Assembly (NCBI GenBank): GCA_000998135.1
Contig: LCCV01000001.1
Location: 72,958 to 136,957, forward strand
Source of the DNA: Parcubacteria group bacterium GW2011_GWA2_42_14
GTDB lineage: Bacteria; Patescibacteriota; Minisyncoccia; Sungbacterales; GWA2-42-14
Length of the DNA: 64,000 nt
Direction: 5' to 3'
This document shows, piece by piece, positions 4,149-58,975 of the stretch. The position numbers and the translations under genes are program-made. How positions within the stretch are numbered: position 1 is the stretch's first letter; each line of letters starts with the position of its first letter. A model generated the notes under the pieces. It searched no databases. It was not told the DNA's origin and saw only the letters and a list, made by a program, of their open reading frames with translations.

Positions 4149-5165
4149 ATGAAAGCAATACGCGTTTTACTATTAGTTTTAGCACTTGCTGGATGCGCGG
4201 TTTTATATAAACCTCCTCCTGATATAACGCCAAAAACAGTTAACTTCAAAGAAGAAATTCCGATATTCTCATACAAAAAGGTACCGCTTAACAAAACAAT
4301 AACGCCCGCCTGGAATTATGGCTCAAAAACGCATGACGTATTCAATTTATCTTTTGATTCGGCCATGCCTGGAGAATCAATCAAGGCGGAATATTGGAAA
4401 AACAAAGCCCCCGGAAGAAAAAAACTGATTATAGTTCTTCCCATTGCCGACAGTACGCGCTTTCCCGGAGAACACTATACCAACGTAATGACATCGTGGA
4501 ACGGCAATACCGAATTCAATGTGCTTTTACTTGAAGACACCAGAAAAATTTCCTGGCTGGAAGAATTAAGAAATTCCGAAGACGAAAAAGAATTTCTTGG
4601 ATGGATGCGCATCGTCTCAATCGCCATAAAAAATTATGTTGTTGACACAAGACGGCTGATTGACTGGGCGGAAACGCGGCAAGAATTAGATTCTTTAAAT
4701 ATCGGCATTATCGGCGCCTCCATCAGTTCCAATTTGGCCGCCTTAATTATGGCCGCCGATTCAAGAATTAAAGCCGGAGTGTTTGACAAAGGCGGAGGAA
4801 GTTTTGCCGATTTATTCAGCTATTCAAAACAGCAGGAACTTAAAGAAAGCCGGGAACTTGTCATGAAAAAATTCAGCTGGACGCGACAAAAATTTGATGA
4901 AAAAATCCGTCCGATTTTACAACCGGTTGAAGCAATTAATTGGGCCGGAAGAATTAATCCCCAAAAAGTTCTTTTCTTAAACGCCAAATATGATACCTGG
5001 ATTCCCAAATTTTCCATTGAAAATTTTTGGAACGCTTTGGGCAAGCCGGAACGGATAGAACATAAAACCGAACATAAAACCGCTTTTCTCTTGTCGCTGA
5101 CCCCTTTCGGAGGCCACTACGCTGATTTCAAAATTTTTAACCATTTCCAAAAAAATCTTCAATAA
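4149..5165 (+). CDS. Lipoprotein, possible alpha/beta-hydrolase fold
   Basis: Start at MKAIRVLLLVLALAGC (lipobox LAGC). The ORF-track start at 4026 is an upstream in-frame extension without a signal peptide. Contains an IGIIGASISSN nucleophile-elbow-like segment. Confidence 0.6.
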   Translation: MKAIRVLLLVLALAGCAVLYKPPPDITPKTVNFKEEIPIFSYKKVPLNKTITPAWNYGSKTHDVFNLSFDSAMPGESIKAEYWKNKAPGRKKLIIVLPIADSTRFPGEHYTNVMTSWNGNTEFNVLLLEDTRKISWLEELRNSEDEKEFLGWMRIVSIAIKNYVVDTRRLIDWAETRQELDSLNIGIIGASISSNLAALIMAADSRIKAGVFDKGGGSFADLFSYSKQQELKESRELVMKKFSWTRQKFDEKIRPILQPVEAINWAGRINPQKVLFLNAKYDTWIPKFSIENFWNALGKPERIEHKTEHKTAFLLSLTPFGGHYADFKIFNHFQKNLQ

Positions 5166-5195
5166 AAGTAGCACGACATCGTGCTATTTTTCAAT
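5166..5195 (+). terminator. Rho-independent terminator (agcacgacatcgtgct + T-run)
   Basis: Hairpin immediately after the lipoprotein stop. Confidence 0.65.
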
Positions 5196-5319
5196 ATCTT
5201 TACGGGTTAGTGTATGAAGATTATGTCTTTGAAAAAGATACCTATCCAAAGCGGATTTTAGTTTTCTTGTATGGTAAACTCAGCAATATAAAAAGATGGC
5301 AGTTGCCACCCAAAATATT

Positions 5320-5670
5320 TTAGTCATAAAGAGAAACGAGCCGCCCTACTACAGTAGCGGTAAATTCTTTTGGAAACAGATAGGCCTGTTTGTAGCTTTG
5401 TGACGAATAATCGCGGTCATAGGGAAGGTGTTGTCTTTCTCCGACTGGTTTGCCGTGCTTTTCAACAAACTTCTGCAGTTTCACCGCTTGGTAGCGAGCG
5501 CGCCACACGCTCTTACCGCAAGAGAACTTCAAGTCAGCTGCATCATCGCGGTCGTGGCCCAACGGCATACCTCCACCCCCAAAATCATAGCGGTAATACC
5601 GCGTGAGAACTACCATGACCCCTATTGCCTGTTTCCGGGATTTTACGGTCTTTGCGCTCTTTGTTTTCAC
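5320..5670 (-). CDS. Hypothetical protein (GC-rich, GTG start, GAGG Shine-Dalgarno) inside the GC-rich island
   Basis: 116-aa ORF. Atypical composition relative to its neighbours; no recognisable domain. Confidence 0.4.
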   Translation of the reverse strand: MKTKSAKTVKSRKQAIGVMVVLTRYYRYDFGGGGMPLGHDRDDAADLKFSCGKSVWRARYQAVKLQKFVEKHGKPVGERQHLPYDRDYSSQSYKQAYLFPKEFTATVVGRLVSLYD

Positions 5671-5824
5671 TTTCCGTTCCTCTCAATTCAATTGGGAAGT
5701 AGCTAATATAATTGGTTGCATAAAGATAAAAACTTGTCAAGCGGTTCCGATTTTTCTCTTTCTGCTTTTTGAGAAAATTTTCTACAATAAAAATTAGTAA
5801 AAAGAATCAAAACTGAATTAAAAA

Positions 5825-5896
5825 CGTCCCCACGGGGACTCGAACCTCGATTTCAGCCTTCGGAGGGCTGCGCTCTATCCATTGAGCTATGGGGAC
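5825..5896 (-). tRNA. tRNA-Arg (anticodon CCG)
   Basis: Cloverleaf folded by hand: acceptor GTCCCCA/TGGGGAC, D-arm GCTC..GAGC, anticodon stem CAGCC/GGCTG with loop CTCCGAA (anticodon CCG), 4-nt variable loop, T-arm CGAGG-TTCGAGT-CCCCG with one A.C mismatch. No CCA is encoded. Confidence 0.8.
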
Positions 5897-5944
5897 ATAT
5901 CTTAACCAACAACTTACAACATACAACCCGCAACATAAAAAAGC

Positions 5945-5975
5945 AAAACCGAGTGTATTGAATACTCGGTTTTGC
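5945..5975 (-). terminator. Rho-independent terminator on the minus strand (aaaaccgagtattcaatacactcggtttt + T-run), closing the structured region upstream of the tRNA
   Basis: 12-bp stem followed by GCTTTTTT on the minus strand. Confidence 0.65.
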
Positions 5976-6306
5976 CCTTATGAATAAATTCGATGGCTCA
6001 CGGGCGACCCTAGACCGATCCGCCACTGGCGGATTTAGGTCGGGCTTGCCTAACACATACAACCATCCAATGCCCAACAAAGTTACATTTTTATTGAGTA
6101 TTGGATAGCCCCGAACCCCATCGCCGGATACAGACCGCAAGACGCGGTCAATATAAGCGATTTAGGGTTCGGGTTTTCCGCGACTACTTGTCGCGGCTTT
6201 GGTCAGGGTGGCGCTGCTCCACATACTCCTTGGGAGTAACGACCTGACCGGTCTTTTAATCCACGGGCCGGCGGCGAAAATCAACGACGACTTTACGAGT
6301 TTTCAT
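5976..6306 (-). ncRNA. Unclassified GC-rich, highly structured region (nested hairpins). It contains an SRP-RNA domain-IV-like motif (GGTCAGGTCG...GGAGCAGCG) at 6201-6251.
   Basis: Nested perfect stems: GACCGC/GCGGTC, CCCGAACCC/GGGTTCGGG, CCGCGAC/GTCGCGG. The motif resembles the conserved SRP GUCAGGUCC...GGAAGCAGC but carries an extended apical hairpin instead of a GNRA tetraloop. A 16-aa ORF led by AGGAGA sits at 6256-6306. The assignment is uncertain. Confidence 0.3.
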
Positions 6307-6331
6307 CAGGGTCTCCTTTTTTTTCGGTTTT

Positions 6332-6517
6332 TTAGCCGAACATCCGGCCGAACATCCGGTTTATTCCCCAAAGTTCGATCCCTAGCAACTCCGGGAAATA
6401 CTTCTCCGGTTTGCCTGGCCACCACGCCGGATTCTCCAAATTCTCCAAACCCTGTATGCTACCGCTCATCAGATTCCACTTACGGTGCTCCAGAATCAGG
6501 AAATCAGACCAGTACAT
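6332..6517 (-). CDS. 61-aa hypothetical protein with a perfect Shine-Dalgarno (AAAGGAGG, 6 nt spacer). The C-terminus ends in a tandem 12-bp duplication (RMFGRMFG).
   Basis: MYWSDFLILEHRKWNLMSGSIQGLENLENPAWWPGKPEKYFPELLGIELWGINRMFGRMFG. The ORF-track 113-aa version is an upstream in-frame extension. Confidence 0.45.
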   Translation of the reverse strand: MYWSDFLILEHRKWNLMSGSIQGLENLENPAWWPGKPEKYFPELLGIELWGINRMFGRMFG

Positions 6518-6869
6518 CTGGCGCCTCCTTTCTTTTTTGGTTTGCTTGTTTCCTGGCTCAAATGGGGCTCCTCCCCCACACCCAAAATGGCATAAAAAAT
6601 TGCTATAAAATATAGGAGAAAAGTGATTGCTTAAAATAATCTTTAACCTTTTGATTATTGCAGTTATAACCATTGGCTATAATGCCATTTTAAGTGTGGG
6701 GGGATTCGCCGAGGAGGGTCGGGAATCTCTTAAGAACCCCATTTGAACCAGGAAAATTGCGTATAAAAGAGCTTTTTCCTTATGTTTTCATTATACACTA
6801 TTTTAAGAAGTTTGTCAAATCCAAAAACAAAATAAAAGCTACGGAAAATCCGTAGCAAAATTTTAAATG

Positions 6870-7484
6870 TTATGGAATAAACAACCTTACAGGATTAACT
6901 GCGTTCAAAAGGAATTCAAGAACGTTGCCGCCGAATCTCTTATTCACGCCAGGCACGTTTTTATCTTTTACCCCGCCGAAATCATTGTTGTATAAAATCT
7001 TATCGCGACAAACAATATAATACTCTCCGTCAGGCCCCGTGGTCAAAAGGTCTTGTTTGTTAAAATAAACCGCTTGCTTATTCTTCTTGGGGTCGCGAAT
7101 CGGATAAACTACGGTATAGTATCTATTGAACTCGCTGGAAAATTTTTCAATATCTTCCGGTTTATCTAATTTGATTTGGGGATTATCAACTCCTAAAATA
7201 TATTTTAATCCTTTGTTCCCTGGCAACTGAATTACGTTTTTGGCATCCGGGTCAAAACCAGCATCCTTAAGTCCAACAGGACAAGACGTCTCTCCCACCT
7301 TAAGATTTTCTTTCGCTTTATTTATAGCCTCATCCGCGGTCATAAACAATCCGGTCATTTCAGTACTCTTTTCGAAATTGGTATTAATACTGCCGGCGGT
7401 ATTACCCACACCCTTCATGGTGGCACAACCGGAAATCAAAACCACAAACAGAGGAATAGCCAAAAACGCATGCTTCTGTCTCAT
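6870..7484 (-). CDS. Lipoprotein (lipobox LISGCA), unknown function
   Basis: AAGGAG ribosome-binding site 7 nt upstream of the start. A terminator hairpin (gctacggattttccgtagc) follows at 6838-6856 on the minus strand. Confidence 0.7.
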   Translation of the reverse strand: MRQKHAFLAIPLFVVLISGCATMKGVGNTAGSINTNFEKSTEMTGLFMTADEAINKAKENLKVGETSCPVGLKDAGFDPDAKNVIQLPGNKGLKYILGVDNPQIKLDKPEDIEKFSSEFNRYYTVVYPIRDPKKNKQAVYFNKQDLLTTGPDGEYYIVCRDKILYNNDFGGVKDKNVPGVNKRFGGNVLEFLLNAVNPVRLFIP

Positions 7485-10285: not shown

Positions 10286-10408
10286 ATGTGGCTTTTACTG
10301 TTTCTTGCTGTATTGGCGCTGGTGGCGATAGTTTTTGGTATCGACAAAATAATCACTCTCCTCGAAGAAATCCTCGCCGAGCTGAAAAAGCTCAACGAGA
10401 AAAAATAA
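10286..10408 (+). CDS. 40-aa single-transmembrane peptide (MWLLLFLAVLALVAIVFGIDKIITLLEEILAELKKLNEKK)
   Basis: Strong Shine-Dalgarno AGGAGGG 5 nt upstream. GC-richer than its surroundings. The ORF track shows a different overlapping frame. Confidence 0.5.
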   Translation: MWLLLFLAVLALVAIVFGIDKIITLLEEILAELKKLNEKK

Positions 10409-21891: not shown

Positions 21892-21907
21892 GTATTGACT
21901 GACTTTA

Positions 21908-21953
21908 GCAACACTCGGTGTTGCTTACTATAAGCAACACCGAGTGTTGCTAA
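21908..21953. repeat. Two tandem copies of the palindrome agcaacactcggtgttgct. A third copy (agcaacactcagtgttg) lies at 10096-10112. A terminator hairpin (aaccgcctattggcggtt) follows.
   Basis: Seen directly at gene 3' ends. Confidence 0.6.
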
Positions 21954-22065
21954 AACAAAACCGCCTATTGGCGGTTTACTACTGCGGACAATTAAATGTT
22001 ATGCAACGTAATATTATAGTGCTGAAGCCAGACGGCCTCCGCGGCCTCACCTGACGCAATAACGG

Positions 22066-23391: not shown

Positions 23392-23466
23392 TCAACCAAC
23401 AACCGACAACCCACAACTAACAACACATGTTGTAAGTTGTAAGTTGTAAGTTGTAAGTTACAAGGG

Positions 23467-34491: not shown

Positions 34492-35004
34492 ATGAAAAAA
34501 GCTCTTATTCTTGTTCTTTTACTTATCGGTCTTGCGATTATTGTCCCTGTAATATCGCTCGCTGAAACCGTGGCTGAAAAACCCAATTTGCCTGCTGGTT
34601 ATGAATCTTGGCCAAACAAATACGAAGGCAGCTGCCAAATAAAGCAAGATGAAGGGGTTAGCATGTCAGCATTTGTCAGAACTTTTCCTAAGGAAAAAAG
34701 GGTTGAAGTTGTCTTAACTCTGACGCAAGAAAAAAACTTGTTCTTTGCTACACATGCAATAGGGACAAAAAATGCACCAGATTTTATTAAGAGCTACATC
34801 AAAACTAATACAAAATGGCTAGATATAGATAATCTACCCAAAGGAGACCTGATCCTCATGGAAGAATTCAAACAAAAAAATCAGAAGTTAAACGAATATG
34901 TCGAATCAGTAATGACGAGTGGCGATTGTGGGGAAGATAACATAAAAGGGTTTAAAAAATTTTGGGAGCCTCAGTTTGAATTTGAATCTGGTTCACAAAA
35001 ATAA
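34492..35004 (+). CDS. Secreted hypothetical protein (signal peptide)
   Basis: AAAGGAGG Shine-Dalgarno. A terminator hairpin (aaatcccgcttccgcgggattt) follows at 35011-35035. Confidence 0.6.
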   Translation: MKKALILVLLLIGLAIIVPVISLAETVAEKPNLPAGYESWPNKYEGSCQIKQDEGVSMSAFVRTFPKEKRVEVVLTLTQEKNLFFATHAIGTKNAPDFIKSYIKTNTKWLDIDNLPKGDLILMEEFKQKNQKLNEYVESVMTSGDCGEDNIKGFKKFWEPQFEFESGSQK

Positions 35005-47461: not shown

Positions 47462-47562
47462 TCGCTAATCAGTCGCGAATTACTTCGCGAATGCCTGTGG
47501 CGAGCTTGTCGAACCATTCGCGAAAAAAATTCGAGATTGATTAGAGATATAAAAAATCGCCT

Positions 47563-47713
47563 CCTAAAGCTGTGGGCAATTACTCCGGTTTGGGAACGCG
47601 GAGGTCAGGATTTTAGCGTGAAATAAACCAGTCGTAACCGGTTTACCCAACGTTGAAAAACCCCCATTAAGGCTAAAAGGTATTTAAAACCTTAATTGCC
47701 CACAGCCTTAGGA
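47563..47713. repeat. ~150-bp element bounded by 18-bp inverted repeats (cctaaagctgtgggcaatt...aattgcccacagccttagg)
   Basis: Seen directly. Intergenic, between pilB and ruvB. Confidence 0.5.
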
Positions 47714-47964
47714 GACGAGTTTATTAGACGCCATGTTAGACGCCCTTTTGGCGTTATAATGGCGTATGAAATTCCCCAATTAGGGATTTCTGGCGTACCA
47801 ATTGGCTTCTATCAAATAGAAAGAGGCCCTCCCCGGCCCCCCCTTATAACGCTTTAAAATTGCTATTGTGGTATGATTATAGCAAAGTCATTATTTAATG
47901 TCAATAGCCGCCATAACTTACAACCTATAACGCTAAAATGTTGTTGGTGGTTGGTTGTTGATAA

Positions 47965-48975
47965 TTGGTTATGATAACCGCCCCCAAGCAAAAAAATGAA
48001 GACAAAAATCTTGATTTAACCCTTCGCCCCCAGAAGTGGGATGAATATATTGGCCAAAAAAATATCAAGGACAATTTAAAAATTCTGATACAGGCCGCTG
48101 CGCAAAGGGGCCAGCCGATTGAACATGTCCTTTTATACGGTCCGGCCGGACTCGGGAAAACATCGCTTGCCCATTTAATCGCGCGGGAAATGAATACCAA
48201 CATCCGGGTAACATCCGGCCCCGCGATTGAACGCGTAGGAGATCTTGCTTCCATCCTTACCAATCTTATGCCCAACGACATTTTATTCGTTGATGAGGCA
48301 CATCGGCTTAATAAAATGATTGAGGAGGTGCTTTATCCGGCAATGGAATCACGCACTCTTGATATAATCATCGGCAAAGGGCCTTCGGCTAAAACAATCC
48401 AGCTTGACCTTCCGCCGTTTACCCTTATTGCGGCAACGACAAGAATAGGACTTTTATCGGGCCCGCTTCGTTCCAGATTCGGAGGAATATTCCGCCTGGA
48501 TTTTTACAAGGAAGAGGATATCCAAAAAATTCTTGAGCGCTCCGCTTCCCTTCTTAGAATTACGCTTGAGCCGGAGGCAAAAAAATTAATTGCCAAATCC
48601 TCCAGATTCACTCCACGGGTCGCCAACCGCCTTTTAAAAAGAGTGCGCGATTGGGCAGAAGTTCACGGCACCGGCGTTATTACGACTGAAGCCGCGAATA
48701 AAGCCTTGGCCTTACTCGAGATTGACGAACAAGGGCTTGAGCCCACGGACAGAAAAATAATTGACGCCATCATTAAAAAGTTCCATGGAGGACCGGTAGG
48801 ACTTCAGGCCCTGGCCGCGGCCACATCCGAAGAGGAAGAAACCATTATTGAGGTTTATGAACCGTATTTAATGCAAATCGGCTTTATAGAAAGAACCCCG
48901 CGGGGACGAGTCGCAACCCATATGGCCTATAACCACTTAGGACTTGTGCCGCCGGCGCAAGGACAGTTAGTATAA
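47965..48975 (+). CDS. ruvB: Holliday junction DNA helicase RuvB
   Basis: AAA+ motifs [11 protein letters not shown] and [10 protein letters not shown]; sensor and winged-helix C-terminus. Confidence 0.95.
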
Positions 48976-49469: not shown

Positions 49470-50003
49470 ATGATTAAACTAAATCCTGATGAAAAAATTT
49501 TAATGGTTATACGGCGTCACTGGTTCGTTATGGTCGGACCGGTGGTTCTTTTGATTATTTTGCTTGTTTTTCCTTCTATTTTTTTAACTACAGTTCCCTA
49601 TTTTTATCCGGCCCTAAACAATAGTCCAGAAATTCAACCAATGATTAATTTTTCTCTGGCTCTTTACATTTTAACCGTTATCCTGTATCTATTTATCTGG
49701 TGGTCTGACTATTATCTTGATATCTGGATAATAACCAATAAAAGATTGGTTGATATTGAACAAAAAGGGCTATTCAACAGGCACATTTCCGAAATGAATG
49801 TAGAAAATATTCAAAACGTCACATTGCAAATTGAAGGTCTAATTCCGACACTTCTTAAATTCGGCAACCTGCTGGTGGAAACGGCCGGAGAGGGACAGTT
49901 TAAAATAAAAGACGCGCCGAATTTGTATGAGGCAAAAGATTTACTTTTGAGATTTTCAAACCACCATACCAACCAACAACCCACAACCAACAACCCACAA
50001 TAG
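49470..50003 (+). CDS. Bacterial PH-domain (YdbS/YdbT-like) membrane protein
   Basis: Two N-terminal transmembrane helices then a bPH_2-like region. The C-terminal tail (QQPTTNNPQ) is encoded by (caacc)-type repeats. Confidence 0.55.
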   Translation: MIKLNPDEKILMVIRRHWFVMVGPVVLLIILLVFPSIFLTTVPYFYPALNNSPEIQPMINFSLALYILTVILYLFIWWSDYYLDIWIITNKRLVDIEQKGLFNRHISEMNVENIQNVTLQIEGLIPTLLKFGNLLVETAGEGQFKIKDAPNLYEAKDLLLRFSNHHTNQQPTTNNPQ

Positions 50004-50043
50004 GTGTTATAAGTTATTAGTTGTAAGTTGTAAGTTATGAGGA

Positions 50044-58504: not shown

Positions 58505-58680
58505 AATCTCTAATCAATCTCTAATTTTTCCGCGAATTATCCATAATTCGCGATTATTTGAGATATCTTATTAACGGGTAATTCGAGATTTTCAAAACAC
58601 CTTTGTATTATAAATTGAATACGCAATACGGCAAAATTTCATAAACTGAATAATATGTTGAGAGACTGTTAATAACTCAA

Positions 58681-58760
58681 CCGACAACTTATAACCTACA
58701 ACCAATAACACGTTTCGCCGTTTAGCTGTTATGGGTTGTCAGTTGTCAGTTGTTAGTTTA
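58681..58760. repeat. Palindromic (acaac...)n / (gttgt...)n motif repeat flanking rpmH on the 5' side. A partner lies at 58910-58968, with family members at 23393-23465, 49961-50037, 47914-47972 and 5897-5940.
   Basis: The left half is tandem caac/acaac-type units and the right half is their reverse complement (gttgtaagttgtaag). Confidence 0.65.
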
Positions 58761-58770
58761 TATTATATGT

Positions 58771-58908
58771 ATGTCTATCACGTATCAGCCAAAAAAGAGA
58801 AAAAGAAAAAAGGTTCATGGATTTTTGAAAAGGATGGCCACGCCGACAGGAAGAAGGGTATTAAACCGGAGAAGGGGGAAAGGGAGAAAGAAGATTACTG
58901 TGGTATAA
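58771..58908 (+). CDS. rpmH: 50S ribosomal protein L34
   Basis: Manual translation gives [45 protein letters not shown] (compare E. coli [44 protein letters not shown]). The ORF track lists a different, overlapping frame (58731-58913). Confidence 0.85.
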
Positions 58909-58975
58909 ACTAACAACTAACAACTCACAACCAACAATGCGTGTTGTAAGTTATGGGTTGTAAGTTACGAAAAGT

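Follow-up and report, generated by a model that had tools for sequence, protein, structure and literature searches.

A GC-rich minus-strand locus next to tRNA-Arg(CCG) in a Parcubacteria genome, most likely a transcription unit of tiny orphan genes between strong hairpins

Organization of the locus

The locus described here surrounds a tRNA-Arg(CCG) gene of Parcubacteria group bacterium GW2011_GWA2_42_14 and lies within a 64,000-nt stretch of contig LCCV01000001.1, which was analyzed at its full length and is referred to below as the window; positions are counted from its first letter. All elements of the locus are on the minus strand, in the order promoter, leader hairpin, 61-aa open reading frame (ORF), 16-aa ORF, hairpins H1-H5, terminator, tRNA-Arg(CCG) and 116-aa gene. 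Rather than a known RNA gene, the region is most likely a set of tiny orphan genes transcribed as one unit from the minus strand. From the promoter to the terminator it comprises the following features:

6790-6818, minus strand: perfect sigma-70 consensus promoter TTGACA-17 nt-TATAAT, with a predicted transcription start near 6783
6549-6755, minus strand: leader hairpin of 207 nt, made of two inverted-repeat arm pairs
6524-6531, minus strand: Shine-Dalgarno sequence (SD) AAAGGAGG, separated by 6 nt from the start codon (ATG) of the 61-aa ORF
6332-6517, minus strand: 61-aa ORF, MYWSDFLILEHRKW...RMFGRMFG, inside a strain-variable module (6322-6541)
6335-6358, minus strand: exact tandem 12-bp duplication, GCCGAACATCCG twice, encoding the C-terminal RMFG-RMFG
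6256-6318, minus strand: SD AAGGAG (6313-6318) and, 6 nt from SD to ATG, the 16-aa ORF MKTRKVVVDFRRRPVD (6256-6306)
6201-6249, minus strand: hairpin H1, a 7-bp stem GGUCAGG/CCUGACC closing two small hairpins; the motif likened to signal recognition particle (SRP) RNA
6178-6196, minus strand: hairpin H2 of the 3' untranslated region (UTR)
6110-6173, minus strand: 3' UTR hairpin H3
6062-6109, minus strand: 3' UTR hairpin H4
6013-6041, minus strand: 3' UTR hairpin H5
5936-5976, minus strand: intrinsic terminator with a perfect 12-13-bp stem (5976-5964/5954-5942), a 9-nt loop and a U6 tail

Several of these features had been proposed in an initial annotation of the same DNA. The 61-aa ORF with its perfect SD and terminal 12-bp duplication, the SD-led 16-aa ORF and the minus-strand terminator were all borne out, as was the inverted-repeat pair of the leader, which proved to be longer than first described.

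Base composition and ribosome-binding sites

The shift to GC-rich sequence noted in the initial annotation is real: GC content lies at 0.50-0.56 across 5400-5700 and 6000-6600, flanking the tRNA on either side, whereas the window averages 0.404 (standard deviation, sd, 0.055). A few ordinary coding stretches elsewhere in the window reach GC as high as that of the island, so the composition is not unique to it. At third codon positions, GC content (GC3) is 0.51-0.69 in the ORFs of the island, with 0.69 in the 61-aa ORF, versus 0.39-0.42 in the flanking host genes. SDs are strong before the small ORFs of the island and absent before most long host ORFs, which have A/T-rich leaders. Together with the difference in GC3, this SD contrast argues for a donor that is higher in GC and uses SDs. 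Most named Sungbacteria metagenome-assembled genomes (MAGs) have 46-60% GC, and the GC-rich parts are probably foreign, acquired horizontally from higher-GC Sungbacteria of the same aquifer. Elsewhere in the window, strong SDs also precede the genes of a 204-aa and a 62-aa lipoprotein, a 40-aa hydrophobic ORF at 10286 and a 170-aa ORF at 34492.

An exchangeable small-ORF module

The locus was compared with public sequences found through exact-protein matches, namely MHQY01000013.1 (GCA_001820775.1) and many Rifle-aquifer metagenome contigs; individual contigs and loci are given L numbers below. In contigs L002, L006, L022, L023 and L026, the segment 6322-6541 is swapped for a 243-nt segment with an SD-led 65-aa ORF, and the two flanks of the swapped segment match the window at 99.6-100% identity. 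The 61-aa and 65-aa products are colinear and 25% identical, with W3, W14 and W33-P34 kept. Both alleles coexist within single samples, as seen in ERZ4903137 (L003 and L022) and ERZ27254842 (L006 and L013). Their open frames, of 61 and 65 codons, end about 25 nt before the next SD, and the chance of both being open was put at about 0.05 x 0.04, a rough estimate from (61/64)^n. That the central 220 nt can be replaced by weakly aligning DNA while an ORF is kept fits coding better than an RNA fold.

The body of the 61-aa ORF is mildly structured (z = -2.6), in contrast to the UTRs on either side of it (z = -8.9 and -8.4). A single-sequence AlphaFold2 (AF2) model of its product shows two helices with a mean predicted local distance difference test score (pLDDT) of 73, which is weak evidence for coding. 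The neighborhood of the module varies as well: in L014, the 61-aa module stands behind a different, GC-rich upstream gene, and in L006 the leader inverted repeat is missing too, from the outer end inward.

The second ORF is also polymorphic. In L026, a single-nucleotide polymorphism (SNP) at 6257 turns its stop codon TAA (6258-6256) into TCA, and the ORF extends to 6184, giving a product of 40 aa; the 40-aa gene is called in this contig, and its frame runs through H1.

Promoter and structured flanks

The window contains two perfect TTGACA-17-TATAAT sites, against 0.04 expected in 64 kb, and one of them starts the locus. A 200-nt structure scan across the window, corrected for GC, gave the leader and H1-H5 regions as the strongest outliers (-5.1 to -5.6 sd).

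The leader region (6500-6785, minus strand) folds at z = -8.9. Its arm pairs, 6549-6570/6734-6755 and 6573-6593/6682-6702, have arms of 22 and 21 nt that are 90-91% complementary, and a CCCUCC loop tops a side hairpin on one of the arms. Each of the four arm mismatches (4/4) is a G.U pair in the RNA of the minus strand and a C.A mismatch in that of the plus strand, and the predicted folding energy of the hairpin is -97.4 kcal/mol on the minus strand versus -83.9 kcal/mol on the plus strand. The leader hairpin is absent or different in contig L006. The inverted repeats also have the form of the terminal inverted repeats of a miniature inverted-repeat transposable element (MITE); the flanks TTGCTT and TTGCGT are the only possible target-site duplication, and the 64-kb window holds no second copy of the unit.

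The plus strand of the same region carries a 39-aa hydrophobic ORF, MLKIIFNLLIIAVITIGYNAILSV..., at 6627-6746, with AGGAGA 7 nt upstream; it lies in the loop of the leader repeat and has antisense orientation relative to the main transcript. Base composition probably accounts for it; no gene caller predicts it on any public contig, and it has no family match.

Downstream of the ORFs, the region 5990-6255 (minus strand) folds at -126.7 kcal/mol and z = -8.4, a stability reached by 0/200 shuffled sequences, and scores -5.1 to -5.5 sd in the GC-corrected scan. The initial annotation had spoken of nested perfect hairpins here. The strong structure stands, but it consists of five serial hairpins that are near-perfect, not nested and perfect. 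The plus strand of the hairpin region also folds (z = -7.2). H3 and H4 are stabler on the minus strand by 5-8 kcal/mol, and no strand preference is seen in H1, H2, H5 or the terminator. The leader hairpin, H3 and H4 are each stabler on the minus strand, by 5-13 kcal/mol, because of G.U pairs, which is evidence for a structure that would act at the RNA level on the minus strand. Besides position 6257, the only variant in the hairpin region is a SNP at 6044, in a weak 2-bp helix. A predicted long-range pairing between the SD region and 6006-6012 is destroyed in the variant strains.

The terminator stem has a predicted energy of -18.3 kcal/mol and is directly followed by UUUUUU, as expected of an intrinsic terminator. 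A consensus terminator scan missed this element because its loop limit is 8 nt and the loop here has 9 nt. At 21904-21954, a perfect 24-bp palindrome, TTTAGCAACACTCGGTGTTGCTTA and its complement, has a core that resembles the terminator stem at 5943-5975.

The second perfect promoter of the window (47904-47876, minus strand) stands before some 320 nt of non-coding sequence that separate a pilB/gspE-like ATPase gene from ruvB. The interval 47550-47904 has a G-rich 5' part and 30-nt inverted-repeat arms (47553-47582/47693-47722), and its end is formed by GGAGGCGAUUUUUU. This structure outlier (-5.3 sd) has no Rfam match and is a candidate non-coding RNA. Both consensus-promoter loci would be good targets for Rifle metatranscriptomes.

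The tRNA gene and its surroundings

Below the terminator, the following features adjoin the unit:

5898-5940, minus strand: ACAAC-type arm, a single arm of a (ACAAC)n/(GTTGT)n low-complexity hairpin family
5824-5897, minus strand: tRNA-Arg with anticodon CCG

The tRNA, proposed initially, was recovered by ARAGORN and by Rfam (RF00005, 63.7 bits). The ACAAC repeat that had been placed at the left edge of the region (5897-5940) is present as well but is not unique, being one arm of a hairpin family found at no fewer than four other intergenic sites. ACAAC/GTTGT hairpins occur at 23393-23460, 49960-50040, 58672-58760, 58905-58965 and 47905-47975, with a half copy at 5898-5940; they are intergenic, often just after genes, and look like a genome-specific element of the repetitive extragenic palindromic (REP) or terminator type.

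The automated promoter scan found no promoter directly before the tRNA-Arg. On manual reading, the sole promoter-like hexamers there, TTGCTT-17-TATGTT, are weak (7/12 matches) and overlap the ACAAC arm. Two further ideas about the tRNA were discarded. Its import to serve GC-rich codons was rejected, CGG making up 14% of the Arg codons in the host. Assembly breaks at the anticodon (5861-5865) were considered as an integration junction, but a tRNA paralogue of nearly the same sequence, or strain differences within the assembly graph, would be the simpler explanation.

Searches and related lineages

Searches of Pfam, NCBIfam, PHROGs, PADLOC and PDB sequences with all the small ORFs returned no match, and a word-indexed homologue search with the 61-aa query found nothing. 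Nothing was found for the locus by blastn against phages and plasmids, by an exact pattern against viral sequences or by viral protein-anchored scans. A metagenome scan with a degenerate pattern of the 16-aa ORF was likewise empty; the collection is evidently without this organism, because the identical JGI contig L007 exists yet was not found. A genome scan anchored on the amidohydrolase encoded next to the locus gave one Candidatus Sungbacteria MAG locus (MHQW; 53% identity), which has no synteny, tRNA, similar RNA or ORFs. No diverged homologue of the structured region was found; the available strain variants are near-identical.

With Rfam 15, only tRNA matches were obtained, whether at the gathering score across the window, at E<=10 across 5100-6900, or at E<=10 with the 111-nt motif region 6170-6280 alone. 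There was thus no match to SRP RNA (small, large or archaeal models), tmRNA, RNase P, 6S RNA, riboswitches or the large RNAs of Rfam even at E<=10, in agreement with the initial annotation as far as RNase P, tmRNA and riboswitch signatures are concerned.

The flanking 204-aa lipoprotein has only two homologues, 57-58% identical, each on a short contig that breaks off soon after the gene; the lineage is sparsely sampled. In L016, from a related lineage whose lipoprotein is 57% identical, the stretch directly behind the gene (2278-2461) contains a terminator, promoter-like hexamers and an apparent 5' half of a class II tRNA. This hints that the order lipoprotein gene, promoter, tRNA may be the older arrangement, and that the unit of about 0.85 kb may sit inside a former tRNA leader. 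A short G-rich hairpin of L016, GGGCGGGGAGGG...CCCCGC, lies between the hexamers and the tRNA-like half. GGGGAGG-like strings occur in L016, in the leader hairpin described here and in the candidate RNA at 47860.

Interpretation of the locus

We tentatively favor, as the best reading, an mRNA for small proteins, acquired horizontally and polymorphic between strains, with large hairpins at the 5' and 3' ends that stabilize or process the transcript. The promoter at 6818-6790 would start an mRNA of about 0.85 kb that ends at the terminator (5976-5936) and carries, in order, the 207-nt 5' hairpin, the 61-aa ORF, a second SD-led ORF of 16 or 40 aa, a 3' UTR of about 250 nt and the terminator. The acquired GC-rich parts would have landed between a strong promoter of the stable-RNA type and its tRNA. 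The 61-aa gene would be a fast-diverging cassette that strains exchange by recombination via the conserved flanks, and the terminator would insulate the tRNA, at least partly, from the upstream unit. The 5' and 3' hairpins may protect the transcript against exonucleolytic decay from its ends or form an RNase III site; we suggest that they are stability or processing elements rather than regulatory RNA.

Several observations weigh against this reading. Expression and translation of the small ORFs are predicted from their sequence, and the 61-, 65- and 40-aa ORFs have no homologues in protein searches. That the 61-aa ORF has recently gained a tandem duplication at its 3' end suggests weak constraint, and so does the nonsense/sense polymorphism of the second ORF. 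Five strong hairpins exceed what the stability of a 3' UTR needs. Within H1 and the leader hairpin, SD-like strings are base-paired with anti-SD-like ones, and the GGAGG strings could be structural instead of ribosome-binding, because the genome is mostly without SDs. The tRNA-like half in L016 is recognized by neither ARAGORN nor Rfam and stays unconfirmed because the contig ends there. As regards mobility, searches for an integrase, an att repeat or a second copy were negative, the Pfam hits of the neighboring genes include no integrase or transposase, and the partial tRNA repeat of a tRNA-targeting island does not occur within 5180-6900. The initial suggestion of a small element integrated beside the tRNA therefore holds in part: foreign composition, strong SDs and a strain-replaced module speak for it, and the missing integrase, att repeat and second copy speak against it.

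If the favored reading is true, foreign orphan small genes have been captured behind a strong promoter beside a tRNA in a reduced genome of the candidate phyla radiation (CPR), which is ordinary though neat, and the turnover of allelic cassettes is visible within natural populations. If the hairpins are functional RNA, the finding matters more, because to our knowledge very few structured RNAs specific to CPR bacteria have been described.

Alternative explanations

The alternative that fares best, although we consider it unlikely, is a long structured RNA of a new type, or one with two functions like Staphylococcus RNAIII. The transcript, of about 850 nt, would work through its hairpins as a regulatory or scaffolding RNA, and the small ORFs would be incidental or secondary. 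It would account for the extreme folding on the transcribed strand and for the G.U pairs that favor the minus strand in the leader, H3 and H4. The ORFs are orphans under apparently weak constraint, and the consensus promoter is typical of stable RNAs, with the other such promoter of the window also preceding a structured non-coding stretch. However, no Rfam family matches, the lack of a diverged homologue means that there is no covariation support, and H1, H2, H5 and the terminator are without strand preference. Moreover, the central 220 nt are replaceable while the ORF is kept, its product being 25% identical, and the predicted pairing between the SD region and 6006-6012 is lost in variant strains.

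A second alternative, which we regard as distinctly unlikely, places the function at the level of DNA. The 207-bp repeat would be a MITE-like relic and the palindromes would be remnants of a decayed cassette array, resembling attC sites, REP sequences or palindrome-associated transposable elements (PATEs), with no role as RNA. The long terminal arms enclose an AT-rich core, and in L006 the loss of the repeat begins precisely at its outer end; the flanks stay conserved while a cassette-like ORF between them is exchanged, and the 61-aa module stands behind a different GC-rich gene in L014. The hairpins fold on both strands (plus-strand z = -7.2), and GTTAGGC at 6048-6054 (minus strand) fits the integron core-site consensus GTTRRRY. 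Yet the consensus occurs only as isolated 7-mers away from the swap boundaries, with no matching inverse core site. Within the 64 kb there is no second copy of a hairpin or repeat unit, nothing similar appears in phage, plasmid or viral collections, and the Pfam hits of the neighbors are free of integrases and transposases. The target-site duplication is unclear, TTGCTT versus TTGCGT being the sole candidate, and the repeat mismatches are biased to G.U on the transcribed strand.

A bolder possibility, to which we give slightly less weight again, is that the locus is specific to Sungbacteria and combines a rapidly diversifying, exchangeable small-protein cassette with conserved, highly structured RNA flanks in a dual-function RNA of about 0.85 kb, made from one of the rare consensus promoters of the genome. 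With the stretch at 47904-47550, it would then belong to an undescribed class of abundant structured CPR RNAs.

A type I toxin-antitoxin-like pair, in which the 39-aa plus-strand peptide (6627-6746) is the toxin and the minus transcript acts as antisense, is very improbable. The ORF, its SD spacing and its hydrophobic N-terminus would suit such a pair, as would an antisense transcript that runs from a perfect promoter across the whole ORF and a long hairpin able to sequester its SD. Against this, neither the scan nor manual reading revealed a plausible plus-strand promoter, and the hydrophobic part stems from the AT-rich loop, where Ile, Leu, Phe and Asn codons arise by composition. In addition, the ORF is uncalled on public contigs and matches no family, and the repeat mismatches favor a minus-strand RNA.

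Marginally less credible still is a leader-peptide attenuator, in which the 16-aa ORF with its CGC CGC CGG run senses charged tRNA-Arg and controls terminator read-through into tRNA-Arg(CCG). Four of its 16 codons are Arg codons, CGG included, it lies upstream of the terminator that precedes this tRNA, and the tRNA's own promoter-like hexamers, read manually, are weak. However, the stop codon of the ORF lies about 280 nt and five independent hairpins ahead of the terminator. Pairing of the upstream RNA with the terminator arms reaches -9.2 and -11.9 kcal/mol, compared with shuffled means of -10.7 and -12.0 kcal/mol. The attenuator was rejected, as this antiterminator pairing does not go beyond chance, the stop codon is polymorphic (TCA in L026), and CGG, with 14% of the genome's Arg codons, is not rare.

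Finally, the unusual SRP (4.5S/7S) RNA proposed in the initial annotation, a domain IV with an extended apical hairpin, can practically be dismissed: the string GGUCAGGUCG...GGAGCAGCG is present, and the likeness is a local one of strings (UCAGGUC...GAGCAGC at 6201-6251, by comparison with Escherichia coli 4.5S RNA), but SRP models give no match, not even at E<=10 with the 111 nt alone, the motif falls within the ORF of one strain (in frame in L026), and it is embedded in an mRNA-like unit instead of forming a discrete gene of about 100 nt (4.5S type) or 270 nt (large type). In both the minimum free energy and the centroid structure, H1 folds into a small three-way junction with loops CAA and AGCAGCG, without a GNRA tetraloop and with UCAGG fully base-paired; GGUCAGG is the plain Watson-Crick partner of CCUGACC, so the loop-and-tetraloop arrangement of domain IV does not arise. 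The case calls for caution, as SRP-like strings and SD-led mini-ORFs do not amount to an RNA gene.

The 116-aa gene and its family

Downstream of the tRNA, the locus ends with two features:

5320-5670, minus strand: 116-aa gene with a GTG start, a member of a small uncharacterized protein family
5294-5311, minus strand: terminator-like hairpin and T-run just after the 116-aa gene

The GTG-start ORF, already noted in the initial annotation, is a real gene. An exhaustive HMMER search recovered 14 homologues of about 100-120 aa that share the motif Y..YD..GGG.PFGH.R...GKPVG.R..LP.D.DY..SY.Q.F. So far, the family is known from metagenomic and MAG sequence alone (loci L028-L033). The product has no sequence match in Pfam, NCBIfam, PHROGs, PADLOC or PDB; a word-indexed search with the 116-aa query returned only itself, and a metagenome scan with the family alignment returned nothing. 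AF2 modeling on the family alignment (pLDDT 85; predicted template modeling score, pTM, 0.75) gave the order three beta strands, helix, two beta strands, helix, for which neither PDB nor BFVD yielded a similar fold. The family, confidently modeled but without a recognizable fold, joins the conserved unknowns of the CPR. One homologue, the 1802-aa protein P0010, matches the family in 25 separate stretches, which suggests that it is a repeat version of part of the 116-aa domain.

The homologues stand in unrelated housekeeping contexts; their neighbors include the 3' end of argS, a uracil-DNA glycosylase (UDG) gene with tRNA-Cys/Leu, an M50 peptidase, methyltransferases and DUF5672, and in L029 and L030 the homologue lies 160 nt downstream of tRNA-Cys and tRNA-Leu. 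A functional tie of the family to tRNA-Arg was nevertheless rejected, because no neighbor is conserved and some homologues have no tRNA nearby.

Comparison with known systems

The resemblance to domain IV of bacterial SRP RNA is confined to strings of 7 nt and 8 nt that recall its conserved loop sequences; H1 fails the covariance models, folds otherwise and lies in an ORF.

Integron cassettes and clusters of attC sites lacking integron-integrases (CALIN) share with the locus a small promoterless ORF that is exchanged within constant flanks and has imperfect palindromes downstream. Unlike these systems, the locus lacks an integrase, an R''/R' core-site pair and a repeated attC architecture, and its swap boundaries lie in the SD regions, not at a hairpin.

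In mixed tRNA-mRNA operons, such as thrU-tyrU-glyT-thrT-tufB and tyrT-tpr of E. coli, genes share the strand and, as is probably the case here, a strong stable-RNA promoter with a tRNA. Here, however, a strong terminator parts the upstream ORFs from the tRNA, and the tRNA linkage of the 116-aa family is not conserved.

Like RNAIII of Staphylococcus aureus, SgrS and SR1, the locus would give a multi-hairpin RNA of several hundred nt with an SD-led small ORF and a terminator. It has no sequence or Rfam relationship to these RNAs and none of their C-rich target-binding loops; it carries two ORFs, one of them an exchangeable cassette, and a regulatory role for it is hypothetical.

Stable mRNAs with end structures, exemplified by the ompA-type 5' stem-loop and by 3' REP or serial hairpins, have much shorter and fewer hairpins than the locus, where a 207-nt leader and five hairpins at the 3' end serve 61 plus 16-40 codons; the hairpins of the locus are not a repeated REP family, and their stabilizing role is putative. 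The likeness lies in the general plan: a strong 5' hairpin, several 3' hairpins before the terminator and, between them, a coding body that is much less structured.

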